Of a stretch of 64,000 nucleotides of DNA, positions 14,459 through 60,092 are shown piece after piece. Where the stretch lies: contig JABDGZ010000004.1 in assembly GCA_013285735.1 (NCBI GenBank), forward strand, positions 999 through 64,998, in the 5' to 3' direction. The notes under the pieces are model-generated. The model searched no databases, was not told the origin of the DNA, and worked only from the letters and a program-made list of their open reading frames with translations. The stretch is from Candidatus Omnitrophota bacterium. GTDB taxonomy: Bacteria; Omnitrophota; Gorgyraeia; Zapsychrales; Fredricksoniimonadaceae. Numbering within the stretch: the stretch's first letter is position 1; each line of letters starts with the position of its first letter. The position numbers and the translations under genes were made by a program.

Positions 14459-17023
14459 TTACTTTATTATTCCTAACAGCGCCGGGACATTCTGAGTTGT
14501 TACAGGTTTAATACTGCGGATGATTGAGGTTAATCCATTCAAATTCATCATGGCACGGTCCTGATATTGAGCCGCAAGAGGCATGCCCATACCATCAACC
14601 TTGATATTCATCGTCAAATTTTCATCGCTCAAGTTGATACCACCAAGATCTGCCTCATGATGAGCCACAGCCGTCGCAGCCCTGTCCCTAGGGCTTGAAA
14701 AAGCATCTGTGGCAGCCAATATCAAATCATTTAAATCACGAATTCTTTTTTCAAGATCTCTAATCTTATACTTTGACTCCTTCCAAGCAATCGCCGTATT
14801 GACATCTTCTAATGCTTTTTCAACATTCTTTTGATCTTGACGAATATCACTAGCACTCCTTGCGCTACTAAAGAACGCTCCTAAATTCTTCACGAAATTC
14901 ATATTCTTTGATTCACTTTCAAGCGCCTCTTGTCTTCTTTTTAATGACATCCTCTCTAACTCTAAATTTTTCTCAATATCAAGATTTCTTATGTTTGCTT
15001 TATAGCCTGCTTTATAATTATTCTTGAACATTTGTCTTCCGGTAGCATCTATTTTTACCTCCATTCTTCTATTCAGTTCTTTCTGAGCATCTAAATCCCT
15101 TTCTGCATCTAGTAGACTTGCATTCAACATATCAACCGCCCCCGTTGTAGCCGCAGCTGATGGTGGGGTAGGAGTTGAAGTAGGCGCAGCTGGAGGCGCA
15201 TCGGGAATCTTAGCTAATAATTCATCCACTTCGCTCTGAAAATGAAGGATTGATATTCCAAGCTGATCAATCTCTTCGTGAGCTATAACCTCTAGTGTTT
15301 GTAAAACCCTTTCACTCGCCTCAATCTGCCTGTTGCTCTCGTCTAGCAGGGTTTCAATATTTGCTAAATTCTTTTTCATCTGCTTTCGAGTCTTTACTCT
15401 TATAAAAAGCCCGGTTAATTCATCAAAATTAAAAGGAAAACCTTGACCCCATAACGAGATACCCATCGCATCAACATAAGATCTTCTTTCGTCTTCATCC
15501 GCTTTTCTTTTAGCTTTCAAATAATCAATTCTTTTAGCTTGGTCCTTTATCCTCTCTAACCTATCGTTTACTTTATAAATACCCACCTGAAAATCACTGA
15601 TTCGACCGGTAAGATTTTGAAATTGGCCTTTCAAAATACCATCCATATCATGACCCTGCGCTTCTCCCAGCCTTTCCTTCGCAGCTTTAAATGTTTCTTG
15701 GGCCTTTAAAAATTTTATGTCTACAGACTCGCCCGTGCCTTCCCGAGCTTCTGCCACTGCCGCGACATCAACCTTACCTGCTGCAGCAACTGCCCTCCCG
15801 CCCAAAACCTGCGCATCGGTAAGGTGAGCAAAGGCCGTATGACTGGCAAAAACCGTCAATAAAACAGTCGCTAATGCAAATCTATGCATATTATTTCTCA
15901 TATTTCCCAAAAAAACAGCCACTCTTGCCTTGAAAGGACTTGTATTAATCTGCTCTTCAACCACCTGTTTCATCCCACCTGAAAAATATTTCCTTGGTAT
16001 TGTTTGGCCATCGGGAATGGCATCTTCTTTAATATAATTGAACACACCTTTCTTGTACGCCCTTAAATATTGCTTATATATTTTTTCCATCGCTTGCGGG
16101 TCGCTAAGCTTCTGCCCCGCGATCCGGGACCTATTGGCGAAAACTTGCCCTAAAAGACTTTGTTTAAGTGTCTTTTTAAACCATGTTGCCATGATCTCAG
16201 CGTTATACACTTGACGGACCGCAGCAAAACTCTTGCCCTCATTAACTTCCTTTTCAATAGCAGGAATAATAATTTCACGGACAATTGCTAAAGCCATCTG
16301 GGTCTTGGCATCTTTACTGGTATCCGGGATAGTTGAAATATTACCGAATTGTTCTTTATTTTTATCAATGGCCATATAATCCTGCTCAAGCATGACCTTC
16401 AGATGACTGTCTACCAAAAATGCTGTGTCACCTTTTTGATAAATATCCGCTTTATCAGCAACGATCCATACTTTGTTAAAAGTATTAACGCTGATATTGG
16501 TAGTGCCAAAACGGGCTTGGGCCTGTTGGTAAACCTCACTCCAAAACTTCTTGCCTAATCCGCTTTCCGGATAAATTAAAGATGCTGTGAATTGTTTGAG
16601 GATATAATCTTGAGCCAAAAGATCACGGCCCATTTCAGTTTGTCCAAAAACTTTAGGAATGATACGCTTGGACTCATAAGGAGAAAGATTCACCCACATA
16701 TCCGAATTCGGCATGGTAAGTGCAACCAAAAAATATTTAATAATTTTATTAAATTCTTCTTTTTCAACGCTATCCGACATAGGGGTTTCGCCACGATCCA
16801 TAATGAAGTCAAAATTAAACGGATCTTTGAGATTGATCTTAAGCCCTACCATCTGTGGTGGTTCAAAATGACGGGTAATATGAATCATCTGGCCCGGAGC
16901 TGGCATGACAATGCTCACCTGAGCATAACTGGGCTGGGCTGGAAGCAAACCAATGAATGCGACCAAAACGACAGAGACAATAAAACGAAATAATGAGGTC
17001 TTTTTAAATGTAATAGTACTCAT
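14459..17023 (-). CDS. large protein of unknown function, 854 aa. It has a signal peptide, a roughly 370-aa N-domain paralogous to the 49263..52474 protein, an internal signal-peptide-like hydrophobic segment, a coiled-coil-rich region and the shared C-terminal module.
   Basis: N-terminus MSTITFKKTSLFRFIVSVVLVAFIGLLPAQPSYAQ. The N-domain aligns with the other paralog (VNLSPYE..RIIP..FG.TEMGRDLLA.DY.LKQ.TASLIYPE; IPRKYFSGG). The C-terminus GGINLSDENLTMNIKV...IIRSIKPVTTQNVPALLGIIK matches the family module. Confidence 0.7.
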   Translation of the reverse strand: MSTITFKKTSLFRFIVSVVLVAFIGLLPAQPSYAQVSIVMPAPGQMIHITRHFEPPQMVGLKINLKDPFNFDFIMDRGETPMSDSVEKEEFNKIIKYFLVALTMPNSDMWVNLSPYESKRIIPKVFGQTEMGRDLLAQDYILKQFTASLIYPESGLGKKFWSEVYQQAQARFGTTNISVNTFNKVWIVADKADIYQKGDTAFLVDSHLKVMLEQDYMAIDKNKEQFGNISTIPDTSKDAKTQMALAIVREIIIPAIEKEVNEGKSFAAVRQVYNAEIMATWFKKTLKQSLLGQVFANRSRIAGQKLSDPQAMEKIYKQYLRAYKKGVFNYIKEDAIPDGQTIPRKYFSGGMKQVVEEQINTSPFKARVAVFLGNMRNNMHRFALATVLLTVFASHTAFAHLTDAQVLGGRAVAAAGKVDVAAVAEAREGTGESVDIKFLKAQETFKAAKERLGEAQGHDMDGILKGQFQNLTGRISDFQVGIYKVNDRLERIKDQAKRIDYLKAKRKADEDERRSYVDAMGISLWGQGFPFNFDELTGLFIRVKTRKQMKKNLANIETLLDESNRQIEASERVLQTLEVIAHEEIDQLGISILHFQSEVDELLAKIPDAPPAAPTSTPTPPSAAATTGAVDMLNASLLDAERDLDAQKELNRRMEVKIDATGRQMFKNNYKAGYKANIRNLDIEKNLELERMSLKRRQEALESESKNMNFVKNLGAFFSSARSASDIRQDQKNVEKALEDVNTAIAWKESKYKIRDLEKRIRDLNDLILAATDAFSSPRDRAATAVAHHEADLGGINLSDENLTMNIKVDGMGMPLAAQYQDRAMMNLNGLTSIIRSIKPVTTQNVPALLGIIK

Positions 17024-31621: not shown

Positions 31622-33430
31622 TTATTTATCAAAAACCCGATCGATGATGGCGGCATCCCAACCATGACGCTGGAGCTCTTTTTTTAAAACCATCAATTCT
31701 TCGGGAGTTTTAGAGGCACATAATTCCTGCAGTAAATTATAATTGAATTGCTGTTGGGTATTAAAACGTATGCTTAAGGGCTTCTCTGGAGTGCCTCTAT
31801 TAAAAATCAAAGCGATCAGCGCCAATATTAATGGTAACGCAACGACTGTTAAAGAAGAATAAAAATCAAAAGACGCGCGTGGATTTAATAAATAAGGCAT
31901 GCTGGACAAGAATGAATCAATCAAAAAGTGCGCGGCAATCACACATACAATGCCAAAACGCAAATAAAAGGTCCCCATGATAATCCCGATACAGGTAACT
32001 TCGATCCCCCTAAACCACATAGGATAAATTTCATATCCCGTATGGCCAAACCCCCACATTGCAGCACTTAAAAATACGGCGAAGATCGTCGGGAAACCAT
32101 ATTTCTTGAACAAATTAATGGCAAATAAACGAAACATGGATTCTTCTGAAAAAGAAGCCTGAAAACCGATCACCAACGCTGAAAGCGCCGGCACCAGGGT
32201 TGTTGAAGCCTGGGTCAACCACGATAGTTCATCCCAAACTCCGCAATACTTAAAGCCTAAATTAAAAATAAAGGCCTGTACTCCTAAAATCACGGCTGCC
32301 GCGATATAGCCAATAAAAATTTGACGCGCAATATTGACTGAACAAAAAGAAGATAAAAGCGCACTTAAAAAACCCCTGTTTTTCTTATCCGGAGAAACTT
32401 CGTAACGTAAGGACTCACCCGCCAACGCCGGTAAAACAAAACCAACAGCTATAAAAAACGGCCCAATGACGCCCTCAATAAATTGCCTGAGAATATAATC
32501 CCCTAATGACTGAGTGGTCGGATAACCAAACAGAACATCCTGATAACTGTTTAAAAGATCCAGCCCCATCAAAACAAACATCACGACCCCAACCCCGATA
32601 TAAAATCGCTTTACACTACGGGCAACCACCTGATGTTTACGGTTGACAACAACCACGATAGCAAAGGTCATCAGTGCCAGATAAAATATACGGAACACCA
32701 GGGTCAAATTTTGCCCGGTTTGCTTTAAATTATCCACATAGCGGTTAAATCCGTCGGGAATTTCAAAATACTGTTTATTAAAACTAAGAATTTCTTGACC
32801 GGACATGGTCACACTCGTCAAAAGCTTGGCATATCCCTTCTCACTGCTTTTATCCCAGGGGATATTCACATCCTTGTCTTGCCAGCTAAAAGCGTATTCC
32901 TGTCGATTATCATATTTATGGACATCCTCACCATGAGTAATGTATTGGGAAGAACTAAAACCATAAGTTGTCTTCAAGAAATTAAAAGCTGATAAACGGG
33001 ATTTTTCCTTATCCACTAAGGGTCTAAACGCGGTGTCTTCGATATAATGATTAAAACCGATGATCTCGCCAGTTGCAGAACTGATAATGACCTTGTATTC
33101 TTCCTTTTGTTTTTCTTTAAAGAAACGGACTACCCAGCAAAATAAATCATAATGCAAGCGATGGATAAAATGCTGGGAGCCGACAATTCCTAAAGTTTTT
33201 TGCAAATACCGGTCAGCCCCGTCATCCGCATTAAACAACACGGCTATTTTATACCCCTTAATATCAATCCCACGCTGAACCTGCAGAAATGTTTTGGAAA
33301 TTTCAACAGCTTTTGCCTGGCTGATGGATAGGTCAATGGATTGATAGCGTGGAAGTGCTAACCGGCACCATAAAAAAACACCGCCCGCTGCCAAAATAAT
33401 CAGGATGAGCCACTCTAAACGTTTATTCAT
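31622..33430 (-). CDS. CPBP-family (CAAX-protease-like) intramembrane metalloprotease with a large N-terminal extracytoplasmic domain
   Basis: The C-terminal part has EESMFRLF (motif 1, EExxxR), FGHTGYE (motif 2) and HFLID (motif 3, HxxxD), plus multiple TM helices. 602 aa. Confidence 0.65.
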   Translation of the reverse strand: MNKRLEWLILIILAAGGVFLWCRLALPRYQSIDLSISQAKAVEISKTFLQVQRGIDIKGYKIAVLFNADDGADRYLQKTLGIVGSQHFIHRLHYDLFCWVVRFFKEKQKEEYKVIISSATGEIIGFNHYIEDTAFRPLVDKEKSRLSAFNFLKTTYGFSSSQYITHGEDVHKYDNRQEYAFSWQDKDVNIPWDKSSEKGYAKLLTSVTMSGQEILSFNKQYFEIPDGFNRYVDNLKQTGQNLTLVFRIFYLALMTFAIVVVVNRKHQVVARSVKRFYIGVGVVMFVLMGLDLLNSYQDVLFGYPTTQSLGDYILRQFIEGVIGPFFIAVGFVLPALAGESLRYEVSPDKKNRGFLSALLSSFCSVNIARQIFIGYIAAAVILGVQAFIFNLGFKYCGVWDELSWLTQASTTLVPALSALVIGFQASFSEESMFRLFAINLFKKYGFPTIFAVFLSAAMWGFGHTGYEIYPMWFRGIEVTCIGIIMGTFYLRFGIVCVIAAHFLIDSFLSSMPYLLNPRASFDFYSSLTVVALPLILALIALIFNRGTPEKPLSIRFNTQQQFNYNLLQELCASKTPEELMVLKKELQRHGWDAAIIDRVFDK

Positions 33431-46716: not shown

Positions 46717-47211
46717 ATGGATAAACTTCCTTTACATACAATCAGTGTTTTAGTGGCTAATAAACCAGGCGTGCTGGTGCGCATTGCATTAGTATTCGCC
46801 CGTCGCGGCTATAATATTAATTCGCTGGTGGTCTCACCCACCATCAATCCTAAATATTCACGCATGACCATCACCGCCAAAGGTGATCTGGAAACATTGG
46901 AACAGATCATTAAAAACGTCAATAAACTCATTGATGTCATTCATTGCGAAGAACATCCTGCTAACACGGTAGAAAAAGAATTAGCCCTGCTTAAAACCAA
47001 GGCTTCCCCTGCAGTCAAAGCGTTTGTCACCAAGAACGCCCATAAATTCCACGTCCGTATCGATGACGCCTCTGAAGGCTGCTATATCATCGAACAGACC
47101 GGCACCACCCTTGAACTCGACGAGTTCGAGAGCTTAATCAAAAAATACGGCGTCCTGGAAATGGTACGCACCGGAAAAGTGCTTATTACCCGCGGACGGG
47201 AAGAGACTTAA
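46717..47211 (+). CDS. ilvN: acetolactate synthase small (regulatory, ACT-domain) subunit
   Basis: 164 aa with an ACT-domain N-terminus (ISVLVANKPGVLVRIALVFARRGYNI). Confidence 0.85.
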   Translation: MDKLPLHTISVLVANKPGVLVRIALVFARRGYNINSLVVSPTINPKYSRMTITAKGDLETLEQIIKNVNKLIDVIHCEEHPANTVEKELALLKTKASPAVKAFVTKNAHKFHVRIDDASEGCYIIEQTGTTLELDEFESLIKKYGVLEMVRTGKVLITRGREET

Positions 47212-49211
47212 ACTGCAGTTGTTATCCCAAGAAATCCCTTAAGATCTGTCATCGGCTTTATACTAATAATCACCGGCACAAAGCCCGGGGCGTTTCGAAG
47301 TTGTGCAAGCATAGCGGGATCAATGTGGAATTTGATTTCGCCGCCGTTATTCTGCGTCTGCAAATGCATGTTGGCAGGGGTTAAGTCGATACCACCTGTG
47401 CTTGATTCCTCCATTTGATGCATAGGTATAGTAGTATGCATCGCTGTATCAAATTTTAACAACACAAACTTCTCATCCTCAATACTGTTATATTGATCCT
47501 CCCCAAACATAGCTGTAAATTTCCCCCAAGAATCCATATGTTGAGGATGAACTTTGACCTTTGTACCATTAACATAAACTGGAAGCTTTTTGACAGTCTT
47601 GTCATTGTCAAAATTAAAAGCTCCATCTAAATCCCGAGGTAAAACCACCCCCTCCAATCCTAAGTTTCCTGCTAACTCATTTAACCCTTTAAGAAGATTT
47701 GTCAACAATTCCTCTCCATCTAAAGAAGCAGATTGAATCGTATCTACTACTAATACTTTTTTACCATCCTTTGTCTCTCCTTTCATCAAACCAACATAGC
47801 CCTTTAATTCTTTACCCTTATAAACAAAATAATACATCGTATCTTCGTGCATGGCCCTGGTAAATGCATACCCCTTATCCCTATCCATATCAAAAGAACA
47901 ATCCATAATTCCAGCTCTCCCTCTGAATACACCCAAAAATCCTTGTGGAACCAGCGAATAACCCTCCCCACCTTTGACCTTGATCACTTTGACTTTAGCT
48001 ATCTCCTCATATACATCGGCTGATAATTGTTCGAAACTCTCCGTAAGACCTTTAATGCTCTCTACCTTTACCCCTATGGCAGCCATCGGAAGATGTCTTT
48101 TGTAATCTTCGTAAAAACTCTTAAACGCTTCAATTTTTTCATCTATCTGTTCTGACTGAAGCTGTCGCACCAACCCTTCGTCTAACAAACTTTCAGCAAT
48201 GATTAAATTTCTCATTAAGACCAAACATCTTTCTGAATGCTCTCCTATGTATTTATCATAGGTTATTTTAAAAACCGTATTGTAGAATTCTTTCTTTTTT
48301 GATAATAATTCCTCTCTCATTACCATTTCTGATGGAAATGGAATACTAAATCTGTCCTTATCCGTAATAATTCCTTCGCGAATAGCTTCGTTTCTTTTAA
48401 AATTCCAATAAATATTACTTAATTTTAATTTTTTATCCCCTTCAAAATTCTCTAATAACCAATTAAAGCTATCTACCTCTGCCTGAATGCCCAACAATTT
48501 ATAAAGATGAGCATCAAACACCTCCCCATCGACATCCTCGACGACTTTATTTTCATACTCTGTAGCGCTAACGTTTAATACTCCCAAGCCTTTGGTTTTA
48601 TTAAAAAGCATTTGCCAGTATCCGGGATTCTTTTTATCAAATTTAATTAACTCACCTATCCTTTCTTCAAATTCATCCCTTGTCAAAACTATCCCGCTAC
48701 TCCTGACAGCCACGTATGCAAACCATAATTTCTTGGGATCATTATAATCAAAACCATTCTCTATTACTTGATGTGCTTCTCTTTTTATTTGTTCAACAAA
48801 TCTAACAGGATCACTACTATCCCAAAAAGACTCAAAAATTTCTTCTTCATATGGAAAATTTTCTTTAATCCATAAAGAATATCTCATAAAACCCTCTGGC
48901 GAGAAATTCTTTTCCTCGATCATTCTGGGATATACAAAACTCAAAACATTAAGAATTGCATGCCTTGCATCTGTACCCCACTCTGAATTTAAACGCTTTT
49001 CTAGATCTTCTGATGTTAAATATCCCTGCTCGACCATTTTTAAATACAGGGGACCCAAAGCATCAACGATTTCATCTCTAACGGAACTATACTCTCTAGT
49101 ATCAAGGAGTTTTTCTAAGACTTCTATAGGCACCCTCTCTCCTCGCTCTGCCCTCCATAGGTATAACTTGCTAAGAGCTTTGATGATTGCTTTCTGTGAA
49201 TCAGAATACAT
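47208..49211 (-). CDS. large protein of unknown function, 667 aa. It has no signal peptide and carries the shared C-terminal module.
   Basis: C-terminus STGGIDLTPANMHLQTQNNGGEIKFHIDPAMLAQLRNAPGFVPVIISIKPMTDLKGFLGITTAV. The coding sequence is AT-rich. Confidence 0.7.
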   Translation of the reverse strand: MYSDSQKAIIKALSKLYLWRAERGERVPIEVLEKLLDTREYSSVRDEIVDALGPLYLKMVEQGYLTSEDLEKRLNSEWGTDARHAILNVLSFVYPRMIEEKNFSPEGFMRYSLWIKENFPYEEEIFESFWDSSDPVRFVEQIKREAHQVIENGFDYNDPKKLWFAYVAVRSSGIVLTRDEFEERIGELIKFDKKNPGYWQMLFNKTKGLGVLNVSATEYENKVVEDVDGEVFDAHLYKLLGIQAEVDSFNWLLENFEGDKKLKLSNIYWNFKRNEAIREGIITDKDRFSIPFPSEMVMREELLSKKKEFYNTVFKITYDKYIGEHSERCLVLMRNLIIAESLLDEGLVRQLQSEQIDEKIEAFKSFYEDYKRHLPMAAIGVKVESIKGLTESFEQLSADVYEEIAKVKVIKVKGGEGYSLVPQGFLGVFRGRAGIMDCSFDMDRDKGYAFTRAMHEDTMYYFVYKGKELKGYVGLMKGETKDGKKVLVVDTIQSASLDGEELLTNLLKGLNELAGNLGLEGVVLPRDLDGAFNFDNDKTVKKLPVYVNGTKVKVHPQHMDSWGKFTAMFGEDQYNSIEDEKFVLLKFDTAMHTTIPMHQMEESSTGGIDLTPANMHLQTQNNGGEIKFHIDPAMLAQLRNAPGFVPVIISIKPMTDLKGFLGITTAV

Positions 49212-49262: not shown

Positions 49263-52200
49263 TTAATTATTGTGGAACTGTTGAGGAGATTTAGATGTCA
49301 ATCCCAAAAATATCCTAATGTTTCTCATTGGCTGAATATTAATAATAACTGGTATAAAACCATGGGCATTTTGTAATTGTTTAAGCAAGACAAGATTAAG
49401 ATGAAATTTAATTTCACCATTACTATATTGAATTTGAAGATTCATATTCTCAGGAGTTAAGTCAATACCACCATAATTTGGATTGTTTAATTGTGCAACA
49501 TAATTATTACCAACGTTTTGAGGTCGCTGTGACCATAAACTTAATTCTCTAATCATAGGTGGGGTTAAAGAATAATCCCACCTTCTGTCGTTCACACGAT
49601 CACGAACATCCACGCTTAAATATGTGAACTGCTCAACCTTAACTTGATTTTCATCAAGCAAATGGATAGTCTGTCTCAAAGTTGATTCTGCCCATTGGGG
49701 GGTAGCCCCATAAGGACCGCTGGATGGAATTCCAGCTTCTGGAAACACCCAAGGCTTACTAACATAGGTTTTTGATACGCGCTTAATATAATCAAATGTT
49801 TCATCTTTGTTTAAAGGAGTTAAATATAAATCAAAACCAAATGCATCAAAACTATTTAAATTCGGGCGATAGTTTTCTCCGTACTTATTCATCTGAGTGT
49901 AAACAATTCTAAAGTTTAAACCATTTTCTTGGCCCAAACGTCTTAAATATGCAGATGTATCCTCAAATCTTTTCTTATAGGCATTATATGCCACTTCAGT
50001 CCATCTCTTTCCATTAGGAGTTCCATCCTCAGTGCCATAAGACATATTATCTGGCTCCGATGCTACTCGGATATAAATAGTGTCATTTTTATCAAAACCT
50101 GCGTCTTTAAATTTTTGCACCATAAAATCAATTTCTTTTTGATCAATCGTTTCCAAGCCTATAAATGGTGCGACTCCCATACCTCTTAAACGGTTCAATT
50201 CATTAACATTCCAAACAGCAAAATTTGAAGCCCCGGTGCTTGAAGGAACATCATGATTCCAATAATACATAAGAGCTTGATGAGAAAAAACTCCTTTTTG
50301 CCTTCCATATGCAATGGTCTTAAAATATTGATCAACTGTAAAATTAGGAAGATAATCGGAGTACGCCCCAACCGGTTTATCAATCTTATTTTCTGGTTGA
50401 GGAGCAAAAGATACTGTTTCGGTACCTTCTTTACTATCAACTTGAAAAAACGAAACGCTCGGTGGTTTATTTTCAAATGTTGGAGCTACCTTATTATGTG
50501 CATATGCTTGAGGCATCATGAAAAGTGCACTAACCCCCAATGTTAAAGCTATGGCGGTTGCCAATGTTCTTTTAGGAGTGAATAATCTTTGTACCAAGGA
50601 TTGTACGAAAGGAACAGATGGGTTTCTTCTAGAAGGTTTTGAGGGGACCTTAATGGGAGACGCGGTACTCGTTTTAACAGCCATTGTAGGTTCAACCGCT
50701 ACAACCGGACTACTTGGTACTTGTATATTACTGCTAAGTGCAAAGATATTTTGAACTTCCTGAATTGTTTCCAACCTACCCGTATATGCCGCTGATATCA
50801 ATCTAATCTTTATTCCTAACGGAAGGCCTCCGGTCTTTTCATCCTTTTTTAAATCATCATCACTAATCCCAAGGCTATCCTGAATACCCTTGATCGTTTG
50901 ATCAAACATTTCTTCCTTCTGAGAAACCATTACTCCATTCCTGTTAACTTTTTTTGCTAAAGATACGTACAATGCTGCTGTTAATATTCTTTGTTTCTGT
51001 ACATAATCTAAATTTTGAATATTAATACCAAATCTATTTTCTACATCGCTGATAAACCTTCCCCAAGCTGCATATGTCGTCTCACCCGATATTTTGTCAA
51101 CAACAGTTAAAAGTTGTCTTTTAGCTGTAGGCCTAAGATTTTCAAAATCGATCCCATATTTAGTAGAAAAATCTCTTAGAATTTTTCCCATAACTCTTAT
51201 ACGCTCATCAGTCACCCTATCATTATGAACTTTTGAAGCAATGATGTTACCAACTTTTGCTTTTAATTTCCTATTCTTATTCCCTTTCAAAATTTCTGCT
51301 AAAGAATTTTCAACATCAGCTCTTTCAGTCTGCTCTGTGATCAACATTGCCCTATCTGGTGAAAGCATCGCCCCATCAGCACCATGCGAATCTGAAGTAA
51401 CTTCAAAATTAGGAATCTCTAAATTAGAATCCCCTTTTTGAAATAATGCCAAAAACGCTCCTCCTGAGAAATATTTCCTTGGTATAGTCTCTTGCGTTAC
51501 AGGATCAACATCTTCTTTGATGTAGTTATACACACCCTTCTTAAAAGCCTTAAGATATCGCTGATAAATTTCTTCTTTCTCCTGTGGGTTATCAATATTG
51601 ACTCCAGCGACCTTGTTCTTATCCGCGTATACCTGTGATAATATGCTTTCTTTGATTTTTTTCTTATACCATGTAGCTAAAATGAGCGAACTATATACCT
51701 GACGTAGTTGGGCGAAATTCTTATCTTCATTAACTTCTTTTTTTAATTCAGGAATAATTATCTCGCGTACGATCTGGCTGCCTAATTGGTTAGTATCTTT
51801 TGCTTGTGTCTGCCGAGATTGGATTCCTTCATGTTTGGTCAATGACAGATAATCTTGCTCTAACATTACTTTTAGTTTTGATTCGACTACATAAGCCGTG
51901 CCTGCTTTTGTATTCTCATAAACTACCGCTTTTTCAGGTACTATCCAAACCTTGTTAAAGGTATTCACCGGAACATTGGTTGTCCCAAATTTTTTAGCGG
52001 CTTCTTCGTAGATTCGCTTCCAGAATTTCTTTCCAATCGTATCTTCAGGGTAAATCAAGCTGGCTGTTATTTGCTTGAGCATATAATCTTCGGCCAACAG
52101 GTCTCGCCCCATCTCAGTAAGCCCAAAGCTATTAGGAATAATACGATCCTTTTCATACGGGGAAAGATTGACCCAAAGGTCTTTCTCAGGGATGGTCAAA

Positions 52201-52474
52201 GAGGCAAGGAAATATTTAATCAGTTTGCTAGATTCATCTTTAAGCTGGCCATTGCTTAATTCACCATCTCCTTTATCTAGAATAAAGTCAAATCTAAACG
52301 GGTTATCAGGATGAACCTTGATTCCTTTAAGAATCGGTGGATCAAATGGAGGACTTAAATGAACCATGACCCCAGGCGTAGGCAAATAATAATCTTGGGC
52401 TTGGGCTAAGGGCATGGGGCCAAAGGAATTAATCAAGAAGGCTACAAGAATAAGGATTAATAGGGATTTTCTCA
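49263..52474 (-). CDS. large protein of unknown function, about 1070 aa. It has a signal peptide, an N-domain paralogous to the 854-aa protein, an internal signal-peptide-like segment, a possible TIM-barrel hydrolase-like region and the shared C-terminal module.
   Basis: I chose the start at Met 52474 (MRKSLLILILVAFLINSFGPMPLAQAQ, a Sec signal). The ORF track starts 13 codons upstream. The C-terminus is YGGIDLTPENMNLQIQYSNGEIKFHLNLVLLKQLQNAHGFIPVIINIQPMRNIRIFLGL. Confidence 0.7.
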
Positions 52475-52667
52475 TCTTAATATAAATATACCATGCATTT
52501 GATAGTAAAAACAAGGGTTGGTGGGAAACTGGCTGGGAATGATACCATAGATCGTTACCCCCCTGCTTGTGAGAAAGTTGAGAAGATCTTATGTGTGAGC
52601 GAAAAAGTCTTTAAGAAGATTCAAAGGGATTTTGAGAGATTTGGTATCAAGGTGGGAAACTGGCCTT

Positions 52668-54224
52668 TTAGGCTTTTTGCCATCTGTCAGGAAGAAGTTC
52701 CTCTAGTCGTGAGATTGGATGGGACTGAATTCTTTGTAAAACGTCTTTCAAATAAGTCCACGTATTGATCTTATTTTTGCGGCAAGTGGCGGTAAAGGTC
52801 ATGAGTATCGCAGCTGTATGACCACCTTTTTCACTTCCAACAAAAAGCCAATTTTTGCGTCCTAAGGCTATTGGACGTATGGCATTTTCAGCAAGATTAT
52901 TGTCTATCGGTAATCGGCCATCTTGAAGATAAGCATTAAGTTCTTTCCAAAGGCCAAGCGTGTAATTAATGGCCAGACGCATGGGTGATTGTGGTAAATG
53001 TCCGGGAAGATGTTCTTCAAGTTTATTTTTAATTTTATCTAATAACACCCTAGATTCTTTTAACCGGAGAGCATGCCTATCTTTTGGGCTTAAGAATTTA
53101 GCATCAGATTCAACATGATACAATTTGGCGATTAGCACCAGTACTTCAGTTGCTGCGCGTGGTGATGTTTTTTCAGCGTCTAGAAAATACCGCCTTGCAT
53201 GCGCCCAACAGGCTAAATGGGTTACGATGTGAGCGGTGGTTTCCTCTGTGGTAGGAGGTTTTCCTAATCCGCTATAGCCAGCATAGGCATCGGACATAAA
53301 AAATCCTTTGTAATCTTTAAAGAATTCCAATGGACCTTCTTTACAGCGGTTTATTGTAAAATTGTACAGTGCATATTTGAAGTTTTCAGCTCCAACTGTT
53401 GCCCACATCCTTGCTGTCTGTATCCCTTTGTTCGGGCCATCTCGCATGTCCACCGGGGTGTCATCATTGCCTACAATGCCGTGTTCAAAGATTTTATTGC
53501 GCTTTAGATCATATAAAGGGGTAAGTGCTAAGGCGCATCCATACATCCAATCAGCCATGGTTTGGCGGCTGATATTTACACCTTCTCGTTTAAGTTTCTC
53601 TTCAATCCTGTACAAAGGGGTATGATATTCAAACTTCTCCGTGATCACATAGGCTAAAAGACCAGCATCTGCTTCACAGCGTTCAATAGGGCCTTCCGGT
53701 GTGGGATGCTGTTTAACACCACAGCCATCACAGCGACTATCCCCACAAGCATACTTGGGTCTCACATAGCTATTGACCAACAGGGATGAGGGGTGGTAAT
53801 CAAGGCGTTCGGTTATATCATCGCCGATATGAACAAGCTTCTTGCCGCAGCCACAGACTTTTTTCTCTTCATGGACATCTAAAACATGTTCAACACGCTT
53901 AAGATGCTCTGGTAATTTCTGACGGCCATGATGATTACGCACATGTGCTGTTACCGCCGTTGTTGTCTCAAGCAGGGGATCTTCTGCCTTTGGGGCAGTA
54001 TTCTTGTCTACTTCTAGGATAAGTTCTTGCATAAGCAGTTGATTGGGGTCAAGTTTTTCACTGCTTCGGCCATACAGACGTTTTATCAAGCCTTCTAATT
54101 GGTGCTGCTGTTTAAGGATTGTATTTTGGAGGGTTTCTACAAGTGCTTCGAGTTGTTGGTTTTGTTCTTTTAGGTATGTATTTTCTTCAGCAGGAGTTGA
54201 GAAAGTAAGCGTCGTCGATACCAT
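52668..54224 (-). CDS. tnpC: IS66 family transposase TnpC
   Basis: N-terminal leucine zipper, then a zinc-finger region CGCGKKLVHIGDDITERLDYHPSSLLVNSYVRPKYAC, and a DDE core. Confidence 0.85.
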   Translation of the reverse strand: MVSTTLTFSTPAEENTYLKEQNQQLEALVETLQNTILKQQHQLEGLIKRLYGRSSEKLDPNQLLMQELILEVDKNTAPKAEDPLLETTTAVTAHVRNHHGRQKLPEHLKRVEHVLDVHEEKKVCGCGKKLVHIGDDITERLDYHPSSLLVNSYVRPKYACGDSRCDGCGVKQHPTPEGPIERCEADAGLLAYVITEKFEYHTPLYRIEEKLKREGVNISRQTMADWMYGCALALTPLYDLKRNKIFEHGIVGNDDTPVDMRDGPNKGIQTARMWATVGAENFKYALYNFTINRCKEGPLEFFKDYKGFFMSDAYAGYSGLGKPPTTEETTAHIVTHLACWAHARRYFLDAEKTSPRAATEVLVLIAKLYHVESDAKFLSPKDRHALRLKESRVLLDKIKNKLEEHLPGHLPQSPMRLAINYTLGLWKELNAYLQDGRLPIDNNLAENAIRPIALGRKNWLFVGSEKGGHTAAILMTFTATCRKNKINTWTYLKDVLQRIQSHPISRLEELLPDRWQKA

Positions 54225-54277
54225 TAGATTTATATTAGCACTTATCGTCGGTGAATCAAGATATTTATTAGATATTT

Positions 54278-54637
54278 TTACATCATTTTAACATTATCAC
54301 GTCGGTATCGTGGTTGACGTTTGATCACTCTTGCTTCAATTCCTTCAAGTAAATTTGCCCATGATGCACGGTCAAGACAGCTACCATCATCAGAAGGGAT
54401 CACAAACCTACCTGCTTCAAGCCGTTTATACCACAACGCATAACCATCGTTATCCCAATAGAGAACTTTTAACTTGGTTTTATTTACATTTAGAAAAACA
54501 AACCAATCGCCATTTAAGGGGTCTTCATGCATTTCATCGGTCACCATCAATGACAAACGATCAAAACTTCTGCGCAAATCACAGCTGCCGCGATATAAAA
54601 ATATCCTGACATTGTTCAAATTAATTCCTGAGATCAT
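54278..54637 (-). CDS. tnpB: IS66 Orf2 accessory protein TnpB
   Basis: 119 aa with [23 protein letters not shown], the characteristic IS66 Orf2. Confidence 0.85.
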
Positions 54638-54936
54638 ATGGCTTTGACCAACCCAAGGATCTTTTGGAAAATCAATTCATCAAAACCATTGAGCTCGATC
54701 TTGTACCCATTGGGGGTTTCAATATGAAGATCCTTCAGGGTGGGGAATGAAGGTTTGATTAACCGAAGGAATCCTGGCTTGGGAGATTCATTACTGATTA
54801 ATCTTTTACGCCATGCATAAAAATTGCTTATGTTGATATTTTTATTCTTGCAGTATTGGGATATTGATAAACCGCTGGTAGGTTGGGCAAAAAGTATTTT
54901 TTGCCATTGCTTCTTTGATCGAAAAATTTTCTTCAT
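54634..54936 (-). CDS. tnpA: IS66 Orf1 (TnpA-like helix-turn-helix protein)
   Basis: 100 aa with a 4-bp overlap with orf2 and an AGGAGG RBS. Confidence 0.7.
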
Positions 54937-55026
54937 CGACGTTCCTCCTATGAATTGTTATAATAATGCAATATTTTACCGCACTATTAAAATGATTCAT
55001 AGATGGATTAGTCGGACGGATACATT

Positions 55027-58000
55027 TTGAGTGGAAATGAGAATTCAGAAAATAAATCTTCACGTTTACAATTCGTTGACATAGTGAATCCGACCCTTGT
55101 TACCCAAATATATCATGAGGCAAATAAAATAATTGGAAATGCCGCTAAATGGACTATTGCAAAACACAAGTTTTCTGAGTTCGATCCAAGAATATTAGAA
55201 GAATTAATGAAGCCAGAAAATGATATTTTGGAGAATATTTCTTCAACAGAGGTCCGTTTAAAGGCTAATTTAGACTGGAATAAACTTATTAGGATACAAG
55301 AAATTGCGGGAAGTGATTTTGAAAAAATTAGGGACATTTTGCAACAGTCCGAAGTGAGAACTGAATATAAATTTGAAATTAAAGATTTTGCTCCCAAAAC
55401 TCCTGATTATTCATCTTTTGAGGGTAAGACAATTGATAGTTTGAAAGAATTTGATGAATGGGCCCAAGTTTACGCACTTGCTTTTTTACCTGCAGCTTAT
55501 GGTGACCCGCAACTCATTGATAAATCGAGACAGGAAATTTTATCTGTAATTGATAAGGACCCAAGAAAGAGGGATCTTTGGTCAATGGTAAGAAATGGCT
55601 TCAATCAAATGACCTCTATTACTACTAAAGACACTGAGCGGAAATCACATTTGAAAACACATCTTGGCACTATTTTAGACGATAGAAAGGGTATTGAAGA
55701 AAAGCTTGAAGAATTGAATAATACTCGCACATTGCCGGAATTGGATGAAATGATAGCAGCAAATAATGTAATGTCATCGGTAGGGAATGGGGTGGTGACA
55801 AGCGGGGAAATAGGAAAAATTGCAGCGGGATTATTACCGGGATTGGCGTCTGGTTTAGGGGCTATTGATCAACCAATAGAATCTTTCGTTAATGCGGCGA
55901 TGAATGCAAGGGATCAGGCGATGACTGTGGTCGATCAAAGGGATCGATTGGTTCGAAATTTGAGAATCTTGTTAGAAAGGCCGGATGTTCAAATAGGATT
56001 AGGTAATCATGAGGCTGTTCGTTACATGTTAAATGGCGTAGCAAGTGCCGCAACAATAAATCCTGGTCCCGCTGCTGTTATTTCATTAGAAAGTTATATA
56101 AAAAAGATAGAAGATTTACTTATTCCAGTGAAACAAAAAATTGAGCTACTAAAGAAGCTTCACAACGAAAATCCTGAGGTTTTCAATGAAGTTGATCAAA
56201 TGGTGATGCTTGAGAATGAAGGATATTCTCCAAAAAAGAGATCGATTGTAAATAAATTAGATAAGGATGAAAATAGTTTTTTGTTTTCTAAGGTTACTAA
56301 GATTCTTGGAGCACGCATATATTATGTGGATCCAACTGTTAAAATACTTATGGCGCATTATGTTCAGGAAGAAGGTGCTAATAAAAGAATAACTTATCAA
56401 GAGCCAACTGCGCTTTTGTTTTCTACATCATCATCCGTCGCCAAGATACAGGCCCAAGCAGCGACACCGGCAGAATGGATTCAAAGGAATCATATGTATG
56501 TTATTGATGGTAGGGAGAAGTTTACAGATCTTGTGAGGTTTACAGAATATTTACTCAAGGCTTATCGAGCCAATCCACATATTCCAGTTGTAGGCTATTT
56601 AGATAAATGGTGTGTGCTTCCAACTCCTCTCGACTTAGTAAAGGAGCGTTTGATCGGTTCCAATGATGTTGTCCGTGCGCTTTCTGATGAAGCGGTAAGT
56701 CGTTCTAATAATATGCCGGTATCAAGTGACGGCATTTTCGATTTGTATTATTTTGCGTCTAAGCTTCTAGATGAAAGGCAAATAAGAGCAACACCTTTCG
56801 TTACGGGTGAATTTAAAGGCGTTACATTAACTGCAATTCGTGAATCGACAATAGAAAGCATTATCACTGAATATAATAAGGTGGTGGCCCGTCCGACAGA
56901 ACCCTATGCTCCTCAAGGCAGCATTGATGGTCAAGCAGCGACACCAAGAGAATGGATGGAAAGACATAATATTCAAATTTTAGAAGGCAGATCATTAAAC
57001 GGTATTAAAAGTGTTGAAGAATTGGCTATGATTTTAGTTCAGCAATTTCAAACCAGACAAAGGCCTGTTGCGGCTGAATGGGAAGGGACTTGGTTAATGA
57101 CAGATCCTTATTTATTCCTGGAGGCGGCTAATCTTGTTGACGTTGGTCAAAGAATGGTTTATGAATGGAGAGAGCGTAAAGCTCGTGCCACTGTTTTGGA
57201 TAGAGGCATTCCAGATTTGAATAATTTTGCGGCTACGTTATTGGATGAAAGGCAAATACGGGGCGATGTTGTGGTTAAAGGCGAATTTGGAGGGATTACT
57301 TTAGTAGCCAATGGACGCACAACGTTACGCAATATTATTCGTCAATATAATGTGGCGGTAAAAAGCATTCCTTCTGTTGGCCCTTTTGATAGTAGTCGCG
57401 AGGTAAAAAGCTTGGATGCATTGGTTAAACGGCATAATATATTATGGATTAACGGGAATGAAATTTTTAGAAAAAGAGGACGGCTGGGGAAGGCTGCTGA
57501 TATCATAGATTTCGCTTTGGATTTAATTGATTTTCAACGTCTAAATCCAATCCAGCCGCATGGCGGCACATGGAATGGGGTGAGCCTAATTTTAGATCCG
57601 TTTTACTTAATGGGGGTTAGCACAGTCGTTGCTAATAAAATTAAAACTCAATATGATCGTCGTTTTAGTAATGAGGAAGAGCCTAATAGACCTATGGAAA
57701 GCTTGTTAGATTTTGCCATCAGACTTTTAGAGGAGAGGGTAATAAGAAGAGATTCTTTCCCAAATGCAAAGCAATTTGAAGCTATCTATAAAGATCCGTC
57801 CGACCAATCTGATGATAAGGGCACCAGTTTAATAGTAACTCCACAATCAACAGTAAAAAGTATTATAGGTCAGTATAATAGAAAGAACCCGCTAAAGCCT
57901 TATACCCCTAACCATAACGAATTAAGAGTTTTTTATGAAGATAAAATGGGAACTGGCGGGATGGGTTTTATTAGGTTTTTACTTGAGGAATACCGATGGG

Positions 58001-58569
58001 ACCCAAGCAGGCCGGTTATTGGCCTAACGCATGGTAAATGGGTCACCCCAGAGCCTTCTGACTTGGTTGTCGATCCTTATTCCGCTGTTTCTAGAATTTC
58101 TAAGGAATTGGAAGATCGGATAAATAATAATCCTTTAGCAGATGACGGTATTGAAGACGTGAGGGATTATGCAGAGGAACTTCTTCATGAAAGAGATATG
58201 AGACAAACACAACAATCTGTTGATAAAGTTACATTTAAAGGCATACAATTAATAGTATCTCCACAATCAACAATAAATAGTATTGTCGAAGATTACAATC
58301 AACAAACTGCTCAATCTCCATCGGCGACAGATGATCAGGCGATGAAGGTCACTGAGAAAAGGTCTAATGGGCCAGGTGGTATCGATTTAAGCCCTGCTAA
58401 TAATGTTTTACAAACCCGAAATGCTGGCATAGGGATCAAATTTCACTTAGATGCTGCCCAGCTTGCCCAATGGCAAAAAGCCCCAGGTGTGATGATTGAG
58501 GATATTACTATCCAGCCGCTTAAAAGTCTTTCTGTCTTTCTTGGTCTACCTGACAGCCAACCTGTTTAA
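55027..58569 (+). CDS. large protein of unknown function, about 1180 aa, with four tandem repeat modules of about 170 aa and the shared C-terminal module. The 5' end is possibly truncated by the IS66 insertion.
   Basis: It starts at a TTG immediately after an in-frame stop, about 90 bp from the IS66 orf1 start, with no SD sequence. The repeats carry LL(D/E)ER.IR...GEF.G(I/V)TL......I..YN. The C-terminus is GPGGIDLSPANNVLQTRNAGIGIKFHLDAAQLAQWQKAPGVMIEDITIQPLKSLSVFLGL. Confidence 0.65.
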   Translation: MSGNENSENKSSRLQFVDIVNPTLVTQIYHEANKIIGNAAKWTIAKHKFSEFDPRILEELMKPENDILENISSTEVRLKANLDWNKLIRIQEIAGSDFEKIRDILQQSEVRTEYKFEIKDFAPKTPDYSSFEGKTIDSLKEFDEWAQVYALAFLPAAYGDPQLIDKSRQEILSVIDKDPRKRDLWSMVRNGFNQMTSITTKDTERKSHLKTHLGTILDDRKGIEEKLEELNNTRTLPELDEMIAANNVMSSVGNGVVTSGEIGKIAAGLLPGLASGLGAIDQPIESFVNAAMNARDQAMTVVDQRDRLVRNLRILLERPDVQIGLGNHEAVRYMLNGVASAATINPGPAAVISLESYIKKIEDLLIPVKQKIELLKKLHNENPEVFNEVDQMVMLENEGYSPKKRSIVNKLDKDENSFLFSKVTKILGARIYYVDPTVKILMAHYVQEEGANKRITYQEPTALLFSTSSSVAKIQAQAATPAEWIQRNHMYVIDGREKFTDLVRFTEYLLKAYRANPHIPVVGYLDKWCVLPTPLDLVKERLIGSNDVVRALSDEAVSRSNNMPVSSDGIFDLYYFASKLLDERQIRATPFVTGEFKGVTLTAIRESTIESIITEYNKVVARPTEPYAPQGSIDGQAATPREWMERHNIQILEGRSLNGIKSVEELAMILVQQFQTRQRPVAAEWEGTWLMTDPYLFLEAANLVDVGQRMVYEWRERKARATVLDRGIPDLNNFAATLLDERQIRGDVVVKGEFGGITLVANGRTTLRNIIRQYNVAVKSIPSVGPFDSSREVKSLDALVKRHNILWINGNEIFRKRGRLGKAADIIDFALDLIDFQRLNPIQPHGGTWNGVSLILDPFYLMGVSTVVANKIKTQYDRRFSNEEEPNRPMESLLDFAIRLLEERVIRRDSFPNAKQFEAIYKDPSDQSDDKGTSLIVTPQSTVKSIIGQYNRKNPLKPYTPNHNELRVFYEDKMGTGGMGFIRFLLEEYRWDPSRPVIGLTHGKWVTPEPSDLVVDPYSAVSRISKELEDRINNNPLADDGIEDVRDYAEELLHERDMRQTQQSVDKVTFKGIQLIVSPQSTINSIVEDYNQQTAQSPSATDDQAMKVTEKRSNGPGGIDLSPANNVLQTRNAGIGIKFHLDAAQLAQWQKAPGVMIEDITIQPLKSLSVFLGLPDSQPV

Positions 58570-60092
58570 AAGGTGGCCCTATCCAAACTCCTGTACCCAA
58601 CAGCTTCAGCAATATGCTCGGGCAAAATAATATCACTCCCCGACAAGTCACTTATAGTTCTGCTAACCTTGAGTATTTTATCGTGTGCCCTGGCTGAGAA
58701 TTTTAATTCTTCCATGGCCCTGATTAAAATTCCTTTAGCTTCTTTTGATAAAGAACAAAAATTACGTAGGTGTGAACTTTCCATGTGGGCATTGCACAAG
58801 ACGGGCAGGCCTTTAAAGCGTTGCCACTGTATTTGACGCGCCTGCGTGGTGCGTTCTTTGATCGTTGCGGAAGATTCTTCCGACGGAGCATCAACAAGTT
58901 CACGGGTTTTCAAGGGCAGGGCGTGCAGATGGATGTCGATGCGGTCTAGCAGCGGCCCGGAGATTTTATGCCGGTATTTTTCAACTTGAAGATTAGAACA
59001 GCGGCATGTTTTTCCAGGAACATCTTTGTATCCGCAGGGGCAAGGGTTCATGGCCGCGATGAGCATAAACCGGGTTGGAAAACGTAAACTCCCTCGAGAA
59101 CGTGCGATACTGACATAACCGTCTTCCAGGGGCTGGCGTAACACTTCCAGCACATGGCGATTGAATTCCAGGAATTCATCCAGGAACAAAACACCGTTAT
59201 GGGCGAGCGTCACCTCGCCGGGACGAGGTCCGCTGCCGCCACCGATAATAGCCACATCCGACGCTGTATGATGAGGCGCCCTAAAGGGGCGCTGGGTGAT
59301 AATGCCCTCAGCATTTTTTAGCAGGCCTGCGACCGAATGGATTTGGGTGGTTTGCAAGACTTCAGCAGGAGTCATATCTGGCAAGATCGTTGTCAGTCGT
59401 TTAGCTAACATGGTTTTACCGCTGCCAGGCGCACCGATCAAAAGCACATTATGCCCGCCGGCAGCTGCCACCTCGAGGCCCCGTTTAATATATTGCTGGG
59501 CTTTGACTTCGCTAAAGTCAAAATTACTGCGATGAGAATTTTTAAGCAGAACTTCAAAATTTGTCTCAACAGCACTGAGTATTTTGGAATCCATCAAAAA
59601 TGCCACAACCTCGTTGAGATGTTTGGCTGGAAAAACAGGACAGCCCGCCAGCGCTGCTTCTTTGGCGTTTTCAAAAGGAACAATAAGCCCCTGGCAATTG
59701 CTGCTGGCCGCGGCCAGGGCAACAGATAAAGCGCCCTGCACAGGTTGTATACGTCCATCTAAAGAAAGTTCACCTATAAAAGCGTAAGGATTTAAAGTCT
59801 CCGGGGGTATCAGGCCTTGGGCTGCCAGGACGCCCAGGGCAATGGCCAAATCATAACAGGGCCCTTGTTTTTTAGTATCGGCGGGTGCCAAATTGATGGT
59901 AATCCTTTGGGCGGGGAATTCAAAACCGCTATTTTTGATGGCCGCGCGAATGCGTTCACGGCTTTCTTTAACGGCATTATCAGGCAAGCCAACCACGGTT
60001 ATAGTGGGCAGCCCAGGACTTATATCTGTTTCAATACCAACAGGATAGGCTTCCAAGCCGCAAAGGCCAAACGAGGCAATTCGAGCTAACAT
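58566..60092 (-). CDS. yifB: YifB/ComM family Mg-chelatase-like AAA+ ATPase
   Basis: 508 aa with an N-terminal Lon-like domain and Walker A GAPGSGKTMLAKR. Confidence 0.85.
   Translation of the reverse strand: MLARIASFGLCGLEAYPVGIETDISPGLPTITVVGLPDNAVKESRERIRAAIKNSGFEFPAQRITINLAPADTKKQGPCYDLAIALGVLAAQGLIPPETLNPYAFIGELSLDGRIQPVQGALSVALAAASSNCQGLIVPFENAKEAALAGCPVFPAKHLNEVVAFLMDSKILSAVETNFEVLLKNSHRSNFDFSEVKAQQYIKRGLEVAAAGGHNVLLIGAPGSGKTMLAKRLTTILPDMTPAEVLQTTQIHSVAGLLKNAEGIITQRPFRAPHHTASDVAIIGGGSGPRPGEVTLAHNGVLFLDEFLEFNRHVLEVLRQPLEDGYVSIARSRGSLRFPTRFMLIAAMNPCPCGYKDVPGKTCRCSNLQVEKYRHKISGPLLDRIDIHLHALPLKTRELVDAPSEESSATIKERTTQARQIQWQRFKGLPVLCNAHMESSHLRNFCSLSKEAKGILIRAMEELKFSARAHDKILKVSRTISDLSGSDIILPEHIAEAVGYRSLDRATF

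Follow-up and report, generated by a model that had tools for sequence, protein, structure and literature searches.

The 64,000-nt stretch of Candidatus Omnitrophota contig JABDGZ010000004.1 analyzed here (hereafter the window) carries a gene for a protein of 1180 amino acids (aa) in which four diverged copies of one domain follow each other in tandem. The repeated module is a well-supported new domain family that is almost unique in current sequence space. The same protein ends in a conserved domain, here called the GGIDL domain, which very probably makes it a member of a family of proteins with a common C-terminus and unrelated cargo. The gene and its parts upstream of the C-terminal domain are as follows:

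55027..58569, forward strand: open reading frame (ORF) of 1180 aa, TTG start, stop codon included
55027..56409, forward strand: N-terminal nonrepeat region, aa 1-461, acidic and soluble, with no family match
56410..56892, forward strand: module R1, aa 462-622, modeled with AlphaFold2 (pLDDT 86)
56893..57369, forward strand: module R2, aa 623-781, a tandem unit
57370..57897, forward strand: module R3, aa 782-957, with a 12-14-residue insertion before the last hairpin and a degenerate ATP.EW motif
57898..58326, forward strand: module R4, aa 958-1100, lacking the leading ATP.EW helix

A BLASTP comparison of the whole protein with itself gave the identity match alone and was replaced by searches in which each 150-residue segment was compared with the remainder of the protein, with that segment masked. 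In these searches, all four units match one another in register (E-values of 1e-8 to 1e-19). Smith-Waterman alignments of unit against unit have z scores of 12-34, and none of 300 shuffles scores as high; two equally long control segments from the N-terminal part stay at chance level (z of about -1.2 to 3.3). A hidden Markov model (HMM) of the units detects four copies and no more (aa 462-622, 621-780, 786-956, and 952-1096), with none in aa 1-461. Segment searches, shuffles, and HMM thus confirm the significant internal repetition that an earlier, sequence-only reading of this DNA had described, and the outcome that would have spoken against it, an absence of periodicity, did not occur. The four-module repeat is real.

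The repeat region (56410-58326) fits the interval 56400-58300 given by that reading, and the motif blocks it quoted recur in each unit: LL.ER at aa 575, 733, 895, and 1047, and YN at aa 613, 771, 947, and 1087. Its description of four diverged tandem modules holds, but not the unit length of ~170 aa: the units measure 143-176 aa, ~160 on average, with spacings of 158, 162, and 152 aa between successive LL.ER motifs and 158, 176, and 140 aa between successive YN motifs. Pairwise identity of the four units is 29%-42% over aligned parts. The upstream ATP.EW..R.N segment attributed to every unit is complete in R1 and R2, degenerate in R3 (LDALVKRHNILWI), and lost in R4. Likewise, the protein is built from modules only in part; the repeats make up 54% of its length, and aa 1-461 and 1101-1180 are nonrepeat. 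A fifth, degenerate module in aa 1-461 was considered and rejected, since neither the module HMM nor HMMs of its two lobes (see below) support it; the sole hints are a BLAST match with an E-value of 0.5 (aa 234-265 against 726-757) and a resemblance, by eye, of aa 462-478 to a module end. The modules are ancient tandem duplicates, and because core and polar residues have been kept in all four despite 60%-70% divergence, they point to long selection for the fold.

The module profile was scored by HMMER, exhaustively, against all 1.84 billion cluster representatives of ~15 billion proteins. Only two proteins contain it: the 1180-aa protein itself (890 bits, in four stretches) and one other, P0004 (one stretch, E-value 8.7e-17). 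The rarity of the module rests on this search, since a word-index search with the four-module alignment missed even the source protein, and its negative result is therefore uninformative. The word-index search with the whole 1180-aa protein returned the protein itself and one tail match only. Pfam, NCBIfam, PHROGs, PADLOC, and the PDB sequences are blank both for the whole protein and for the module profile, which bears out the earlier impression that the repeat belongs to no recognized family. The Pfam and NCBIfam models of known repeats (RTX, Big/Ig-like, cadherin, YD/Rhs, HEAT/TPR, and others) give nothing above noise with the whole protein or with single modules. A defense system was also considered and dismissed, the sole PADLOC result being a 14-bit match to JetD. 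No further module occurs in the six-frame ORFs of 82 loci (~746 kb in all), 79 of which are loci of the C-terminal domain. The 1180-aa protein is a singleton: its 90% cluster holds one identical sequence only, present in NCBI, JGI, and Logan and representing one contig lineage; the contig is also contained in SRR8422745. Since aa 1-461 were covered by the word-index search and the family libraries only, the orphan status of this region is less secure than that of the modules.

P0004 (2075 aa, JGI metagenome 3300047491) shares one module copy, at aa 1491-1625, which is 26%-32% identical to the modules described here. This copy scores 171 against R2, close to the 179 of R1 against R2. P0004 differs from the 1180-aa protein in having a single copy, in lacking the GGIDL C-terminal domain, and in the higher GC content of its contig (53%). 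Judged by eye, P0004 (locus L002, 4-6231) apparently has long hydrophobic stretches. Nine R[SA]E[VLMT]R motifs, such as ARAEVR, PRSEVR, and TRSELR, also partition it, with one immediately before the module, and they might correspond, in that lineage, to the D.AM separators described below.

Structure prediction of a single module (AlphaFold2, R1, alignment of five sequences) yields a confident two-lobed alpha/beta model, with a pLDDT of 86 and a pTM of 0.77. Its secondary structure elements run in the order h-b-a-b-b-a-a, then (b)-a-b-b-a, beginning with a short lead helix, and each lobe has a helix-hairpin-helix core. The two halves of the module align profile-to-profile (P = 1.4e-4; FTDLVRFTEYLLKAYR..PVVGYLDKWCVL with IFDLYYFASKLLDERQ..FVTGEFKGVTLT), and half-module HMMs give weak reciprocal cross-matches that are in register. 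From this similarity of half to half, the module probably arose long ago by duplication of one helix-hairpin-helix lobe, and the protein would then have eight lobes. The lobes are not equally conserved: mean pairwise identity among the modules is 36% in lobe 2 and 21% in lobe 1. Lobe 2 also holds nine of the 12 invariant residues, including the E and R of LL.ER..R and the Y of YN, and keeps a polar cluster in each module, made up of LL.ER..R on one helix, the Arg with which the helix before it ends, and YN on the final helix. About 58 residues of the R1 model superpose at 1.4 A on phage proteins of 63-75 aa whose function is unknown (predicted viral structures; target TM-score up to 0.84, E-values of 0.02-0.1). 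The model therefore suggests that a portion of the module, roughly as large as one lobe, corresponds to a small fold that exists autonomously, which offers no functional clue.

Downstream from the modules lies the C-terminal domain, preceded by the second of two copies of a short motif, D.AM:

55912..55923, forward strand: first D.AM motif, DQAM, aa 296-299
58333..58344, forward strand: second D.AM motif, DQAM, aa 1103-1106, 10 residues upstream of GGIDL, the position typical of the family
58375..58566, forward strand: C-terminal GGIDL domain, aa 1117-1180, with the pattern GGIDL..IKFHLD..L.Q.Q.APG....I.IQP....FLGL

The last 64 residues of the protein are 44%-47% identical to the C-termini of two proteins encoded nearby on the reverse strand (49263-52514 and 47208-49211). 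The family HMM, whose consensus spans ~65 residues (GGIDL...IKFHLDPA.L.QLQNAPGFVPVIINIQP...FLG), matches aa 1105-1180 with an E-value of 5.5e-42, leaving no residues after the match. When one genome per prokaryotic species was scanned, the tail turned up at 94 places, and 79 loci were retained: 50 in MAGs labeled Omnitrophota, 28 in co-assembly MAGs (metagenome-assembled genomes) labeled "uncultured Planctomycetales," and one in an Alphaproteobacteria MAG. Genomes carry many copies, often 10 or more. In all 91 ORFs compared, the domain ends at most 14 residues from the stop codon. The domain is present in at least 290 database proteins, all of them "hypothetical" and none with a Pfam domain. 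The family has no model in Pfam or NCBIfam, and we found no published description of the domain or of the family in the literature searched.

In about three-quarters of the complete family members, the protein begins with a signal peptide and a ~350-residue conserved N-domain, which has the signature LPxPGVMVHLSP...KVHPDNPFRFDFILD (...LPxPGVMVHLSPxFNPPILKGIKVHPDNPFRFDFILD...). Between the two conserved ends sits unrelated cargo, which among 36 full-length members comprises methyltransferases, Ser/Thr kinases, phospholipase D, PPDK_N, DnaJ, GGDEF, ART-PolyVal ADP-ribosyltransferase, GNAT, and PRTase. The D.AM motif (DQAM, DRAM, DKAM, and similar) brackets this cargo, following the N-domain in the family consensus and standing 2-26 residues before GGID. 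In 40 of 91 sequences it lies no more than 30 residues ahead of GGID, compared with 3.7% of other sequence segments (an ~12-fold enrichment) and 0.25% expected from composition. D.AM might mark where the proteins are processed or where recombination sets a boundary.

Four genes of the family lie in the window, according to the family HMMs. Besides the gene of the 1180-aa protein they are the following:

49263..52514, reverse strand: divergent neighbor, 1083 aa, of canonical build (signal peptide, N-domain, variable cargo, GGIDL C-terminal domain)
47208..49211, reverse strand: protein of 667 aa with the GGIDL C-terminal domain and, like the 1180-aa protein, without the N-domain
14459..17023, reverse strand: protein of 854 aa with an N-domain (E-value 1e-142) and a strongly diverged C-terminal domain (E-value 0.006)

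The G+C content at third codon positions (GC3) is 0.28-0.37 in the family genes (0.30 in the 1180-aa gene) and 0.41-0.52 in the flanking housekeeping genes, which suggests that the family genes are fast-evolving or recently acquired accessory genes. The 1180-aa protein shares with its family the tail, the D.AM motif before GGIDL, the adjacency to two family genes, and the low GC3. It differs in its cargo, an orphan N-terminal region followed by the four orphan modules, which is found in no other member examined across the ~746 kb of related loci. It also has no signal peptide and no transmembrane segment (highest 19-residue Kyte-Doolittle mean, 1.56), its N-terminus is hydrophilic, and the N-domain HMM matches two other proteins of the window (E-values of 1e-206 and 1e-142) but not this one. 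About one-quarter of the complete members lack the N-domain, including the 667-aa neighbor, and such proteins occur in other genomes as well.

In a separate comparison, aa 21-106 (55087-55344) weakly resemble the ~80-residue C-terminal extension of a PilT-like ATPase from another Omnitrophota MAG (locus L067, 3143-3406, reverse strand), with 39% identity over 89 columns and an E-value of 0.009 in a small database of the loci. The alignment pairs SSTEVRLKAN with SPTEVRIKQN and SDFEKIRDILQ with DDFDKIWALLQ. A metagenome scan with an alignment of this N-terminus and the PilT extension gave no further match.

The logic of the family, a conserved and strictly C-terminal tag on unrelated passengers within one phylum, is that of the C-terminal domain of the type IX secretion system of Bacteroidota, of PEP-CTERM, and of LPXTG, although the GGIDL domain has no sequence match to their models. 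No sorting-signal model of Pfam or NCBIfam is matched by either tail-bearing protein of the window at E-values up to 1. The predicted structure of the isolated domain matches nothing. It is also of low confidence (pLDDT 65) despite an alignment of 90 conserved sequences, and this low confidence would be consistent with a domain that folds only on a partner. Because the tail is highly conserved, strictly terminal, independent of the cargo, and without a confident fold of its own, we infer that it serves as the recognition site for one shared partner, which would export, anchor, or dock every member of the family. For such a sorting or docking role the case seems to us evenly balanced. A general tie of the domain to clusters resembling type II secretion systems (T2SS) is unsupported: only the contig region of the family member P0002 (locus L003, also present as L043) has such a cluster, within ~6 kb, and locus L067 contributes the PilT-like ATPase match alone.

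The reading that we tentatively favor joins these observations, taking the 1180-aa protein as a lineage-specific passenger of a sorting or docking family whose modules form a multivalent binding array. The passenger region would have been built by serial tandem duplication of a domain of ~160 residues, giving four modules, or eight lobes, in a string. Since every module keeps the same polar cluster in its conserved lobe, each might bear the same predicted binding site, and the array would then be a multivalent binder; taken by itself, this role for the modules is rather doubtful. Export or docking of this particular protein, ligand binding by its modules, and any role with prey or hosts are likewise putative. 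The family context agrees with the functional class proposed earlier (effectors, adhesins, and toxins), in that the enzyme cargo of the family resembles an exported effector set, but the protein matches no adhesin or toxin repeat and has none of the signal peptide, transmembrane segment, and N-domain. Nor is it "giant," as it had been called, since 1180 aa is not giant by the standards of Omnitrophota.

Several observations weigh against the favored reading. Export is unsupported for a protein that has no transmembrane segment and lacks the signal peptide and N-domain found in about three-quarters of the complete members. Its gene is flanked by housekeeping genes and an insertion sequence (IS) and by no secretion genes, a lone PilT-like ATPase (T2SSE) gene being 24 kb away. 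The fold gives no functional analog in the PDB or among predicted viral structures. The conserved ER..R and YN residues could be structural instead of forming a binding site. The IS has cut the gene from its native upstream region, and present expression may be doubtful. Finally, there is no ortholog anywhere, and consequently purifying selection is not measurable.

A different account keeps the protein inside the cell, as a regulator or scaffold. Its modules would be Bateman-like pairs of lobes that bind a small anionic ligand, for example a nucleotide, and its C-terminal domain would be an oligomerization or docking domain that gathers diverse cytoplasmic enzymes, along with this protein, in one shared complex, either intracellular or membrane-associated. 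The absence of a signal peptide and of a transmembrane segment suits this account, as does the cargo of the family, which consists mostly of enzymes needing ATP, SAM, GTP, or NAD. The conserved Arg/Glu cluster of the module would fit such a ligand, and the order of its secondary structure fits two beta-alpha-beta-beta-alpha units, which, placed consecutively within ~140 residues, are also the plan of CBS-pair (Bateman) proteins. The top 12 PDB entries returned by Foldseek for the R1 model are all CBS-pair proteins. The likeness is one of topology only: the folds do not superpose (rmsd of ~12 A), none of the PDB matches is significant (best E-value 0.09, TM-score of ~0.2, where ~0.5 or more would indicate a common fold), and the Pfam CBS model matches none of the five modules even at E-values up to 10. 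Moreover, the signal peptide on about three-quarters of the family members means that their C-terminal domain acts outside the cytoplasm. We regard the intracellular account as unlikely.

Less probable still is that the gene is a silenced or decaying strain-specific accessory gene, inactivated by an IS at its start codon and now without function. The IS separates the 1180-aa gene from the divergent gene of the 1083-aa family protein:

52637..55023, reverse strand: IS66-family element, 2387 bp, with tnpA at 54634-54936, tnpB at 54278-54637, and tnpC at 52668-54224
52629..52636, no strand assigned: left copy of the target-site duplication ATTTTGAG, 8 bp
55024..55031, no strand assigned: right copy of the target-site duplication ATTTTGAG, which includes the TTG start at 55027-55029

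The element has Pfam matches to LZ_Tnp_IS66, zf-IS66, DDE_Tnp_IS66, and TnpB_IS66. A duplication of 8 bp is typical of IS66, and the 8-mer has only four occurrences in the whole window. Seven other copies of the IS, on metagenome contigs, lose similarity at window positions 55023-55026, and the junctions place its terminus (...GGACGGATAC) at 55023, 3 nt before the TTG start. At its left end the element has no recognizable terminal inverted repeat. Joining the two flanks gives the empty site (...AAAGGGATTTTGAGTGGAAATGAG...), in which an in-frame TGA stands 11 codons upstream with no canonical start codon before the present one. The coding region is therefore untruncated and the absence of a signal peptide native; truncation of the ORF by the IS, which we had considered, is rejected by the target-site duplication and the reconstructed empty site.

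The insertion displaced the native upstream region (~120-160 bp) by 2.4 kb and duplicated the start codon, which counts in favor of a silenced gene. The protein is also a singleton among ~15 billion, and its gene combines a low GC3 (0.30) with a TTG start. In a related genome (locus L086, 3251-5550 and 5763-6830), the same IS stands beside an 82%-identical ortholog of the 1083-aa gene, and the 3.2 kb available beyond the IS copy contain no relative of the 1180-aa gene; an alpha/beta-hydrolase-like gene and TPR genes are found there instead. This arrangement agrees with the 1180-aa gene being strain-specific. The IS could have entered that intergenic region on a separate occasion, or it could have mediated a rearrangement. 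On the other side, the frame is intact across 1180 codons, the conserved core and polar residues persist in all four diverged modules, the sequence before insertion shows no truncation, and proteins with the C-terminal domain but no N-domain occur in other genomes too. The IS end itself supplies a Shine-Dalgarno-like GGACGGA 6-12 nt before the start codon and a promoter-like TCGACG-17-TGnTATAAT facing the gene; promoter-like sites are not enriched overall.

Least probable, and indeed very unlikely, is that the modules are enzymatic, or that aa 1-461 are the active part and the modules a rigid spacer only: family members mostly have enzymes between their two ends, the conserved Glu, Arg, Tyr, and Asn could be catalytic, and the N-terminal 461 residues are unexplained, but no enzyme family is matched by sequence or fold, and a catalytic domain in four tandem copies would be unusual. 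One lobe, moreover, is a unit of only ~58 residues, known elsewhere as a small protein by itself, and this size leaves little room for an active site.

C-terminally tagged passengers with tandem domains are a known kind of protein; here both the repeat and the tag are without family assignment or, within the searches made, description. The new repeat domain is worth recording but changes no concept. The larger point is that hundreds of Omnitrophota proteins share a C-terminal domain, and usually an N-domain too, around unrelated cargo, and a common tag on variable proteins would offer an experimental handle on their sorting, processing, or delivery. The phylum is believed to comprise predatory and parasitic lineages whose giant multi-enzyme proteins await explanation. 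In a bolder reading, the GGIDL domain and the D.AM motifs around the variable middle would mark a phylum-specific export-and-processing route by which Omnitrophota supply their prey or hosts with polymorphic enzyme and binding cargo. The 1180-aa protein would then belong to this cargo, and the module would represent a new fold for ligand binding, one lobe of which is also known from small, independent phage proteins. We consider this reading speculative and unlikely.

The giant proteins of Omnitrophota, among them the archaeovorins, provide a further comparison (West-Roberts et al., bioRxiv 10.1101/2023.11.21.568195). They come from the phylum inferred for the 1180-aa protein as well, and their domains (HAD, HATPase_c, HEAT, GGDEF, PPDK_N, and methyltransferases) overlap those of family members such as P0002, which lies beside a T2SS-like cluster. 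The size cut-offs of that work are tens of thousands of aa, against the 1180 aa of the protein described here, which has no such domains, no membrane or signal segments, and no adjacent secretion locus. The GGIDL domain and the module are not described in the passages of that work examined.

At its 3' end, the 1180-aa gene runs for 4 nt (58566-58569, with the stop codon) into the end of a convergent Mg-chelatase/ComM-like gene (58566-60092, reverse strand), with no space for a terminator between the two. The single perfect DnaA box of the window, at 32730, is far from the minimum of the cumulative GC skew. This minimum, with a change of sign, falls at ~50000-54000, where the genes switch from mostly the reverse to the forward strand, and it may reflect gene orientation only or a replication origin.

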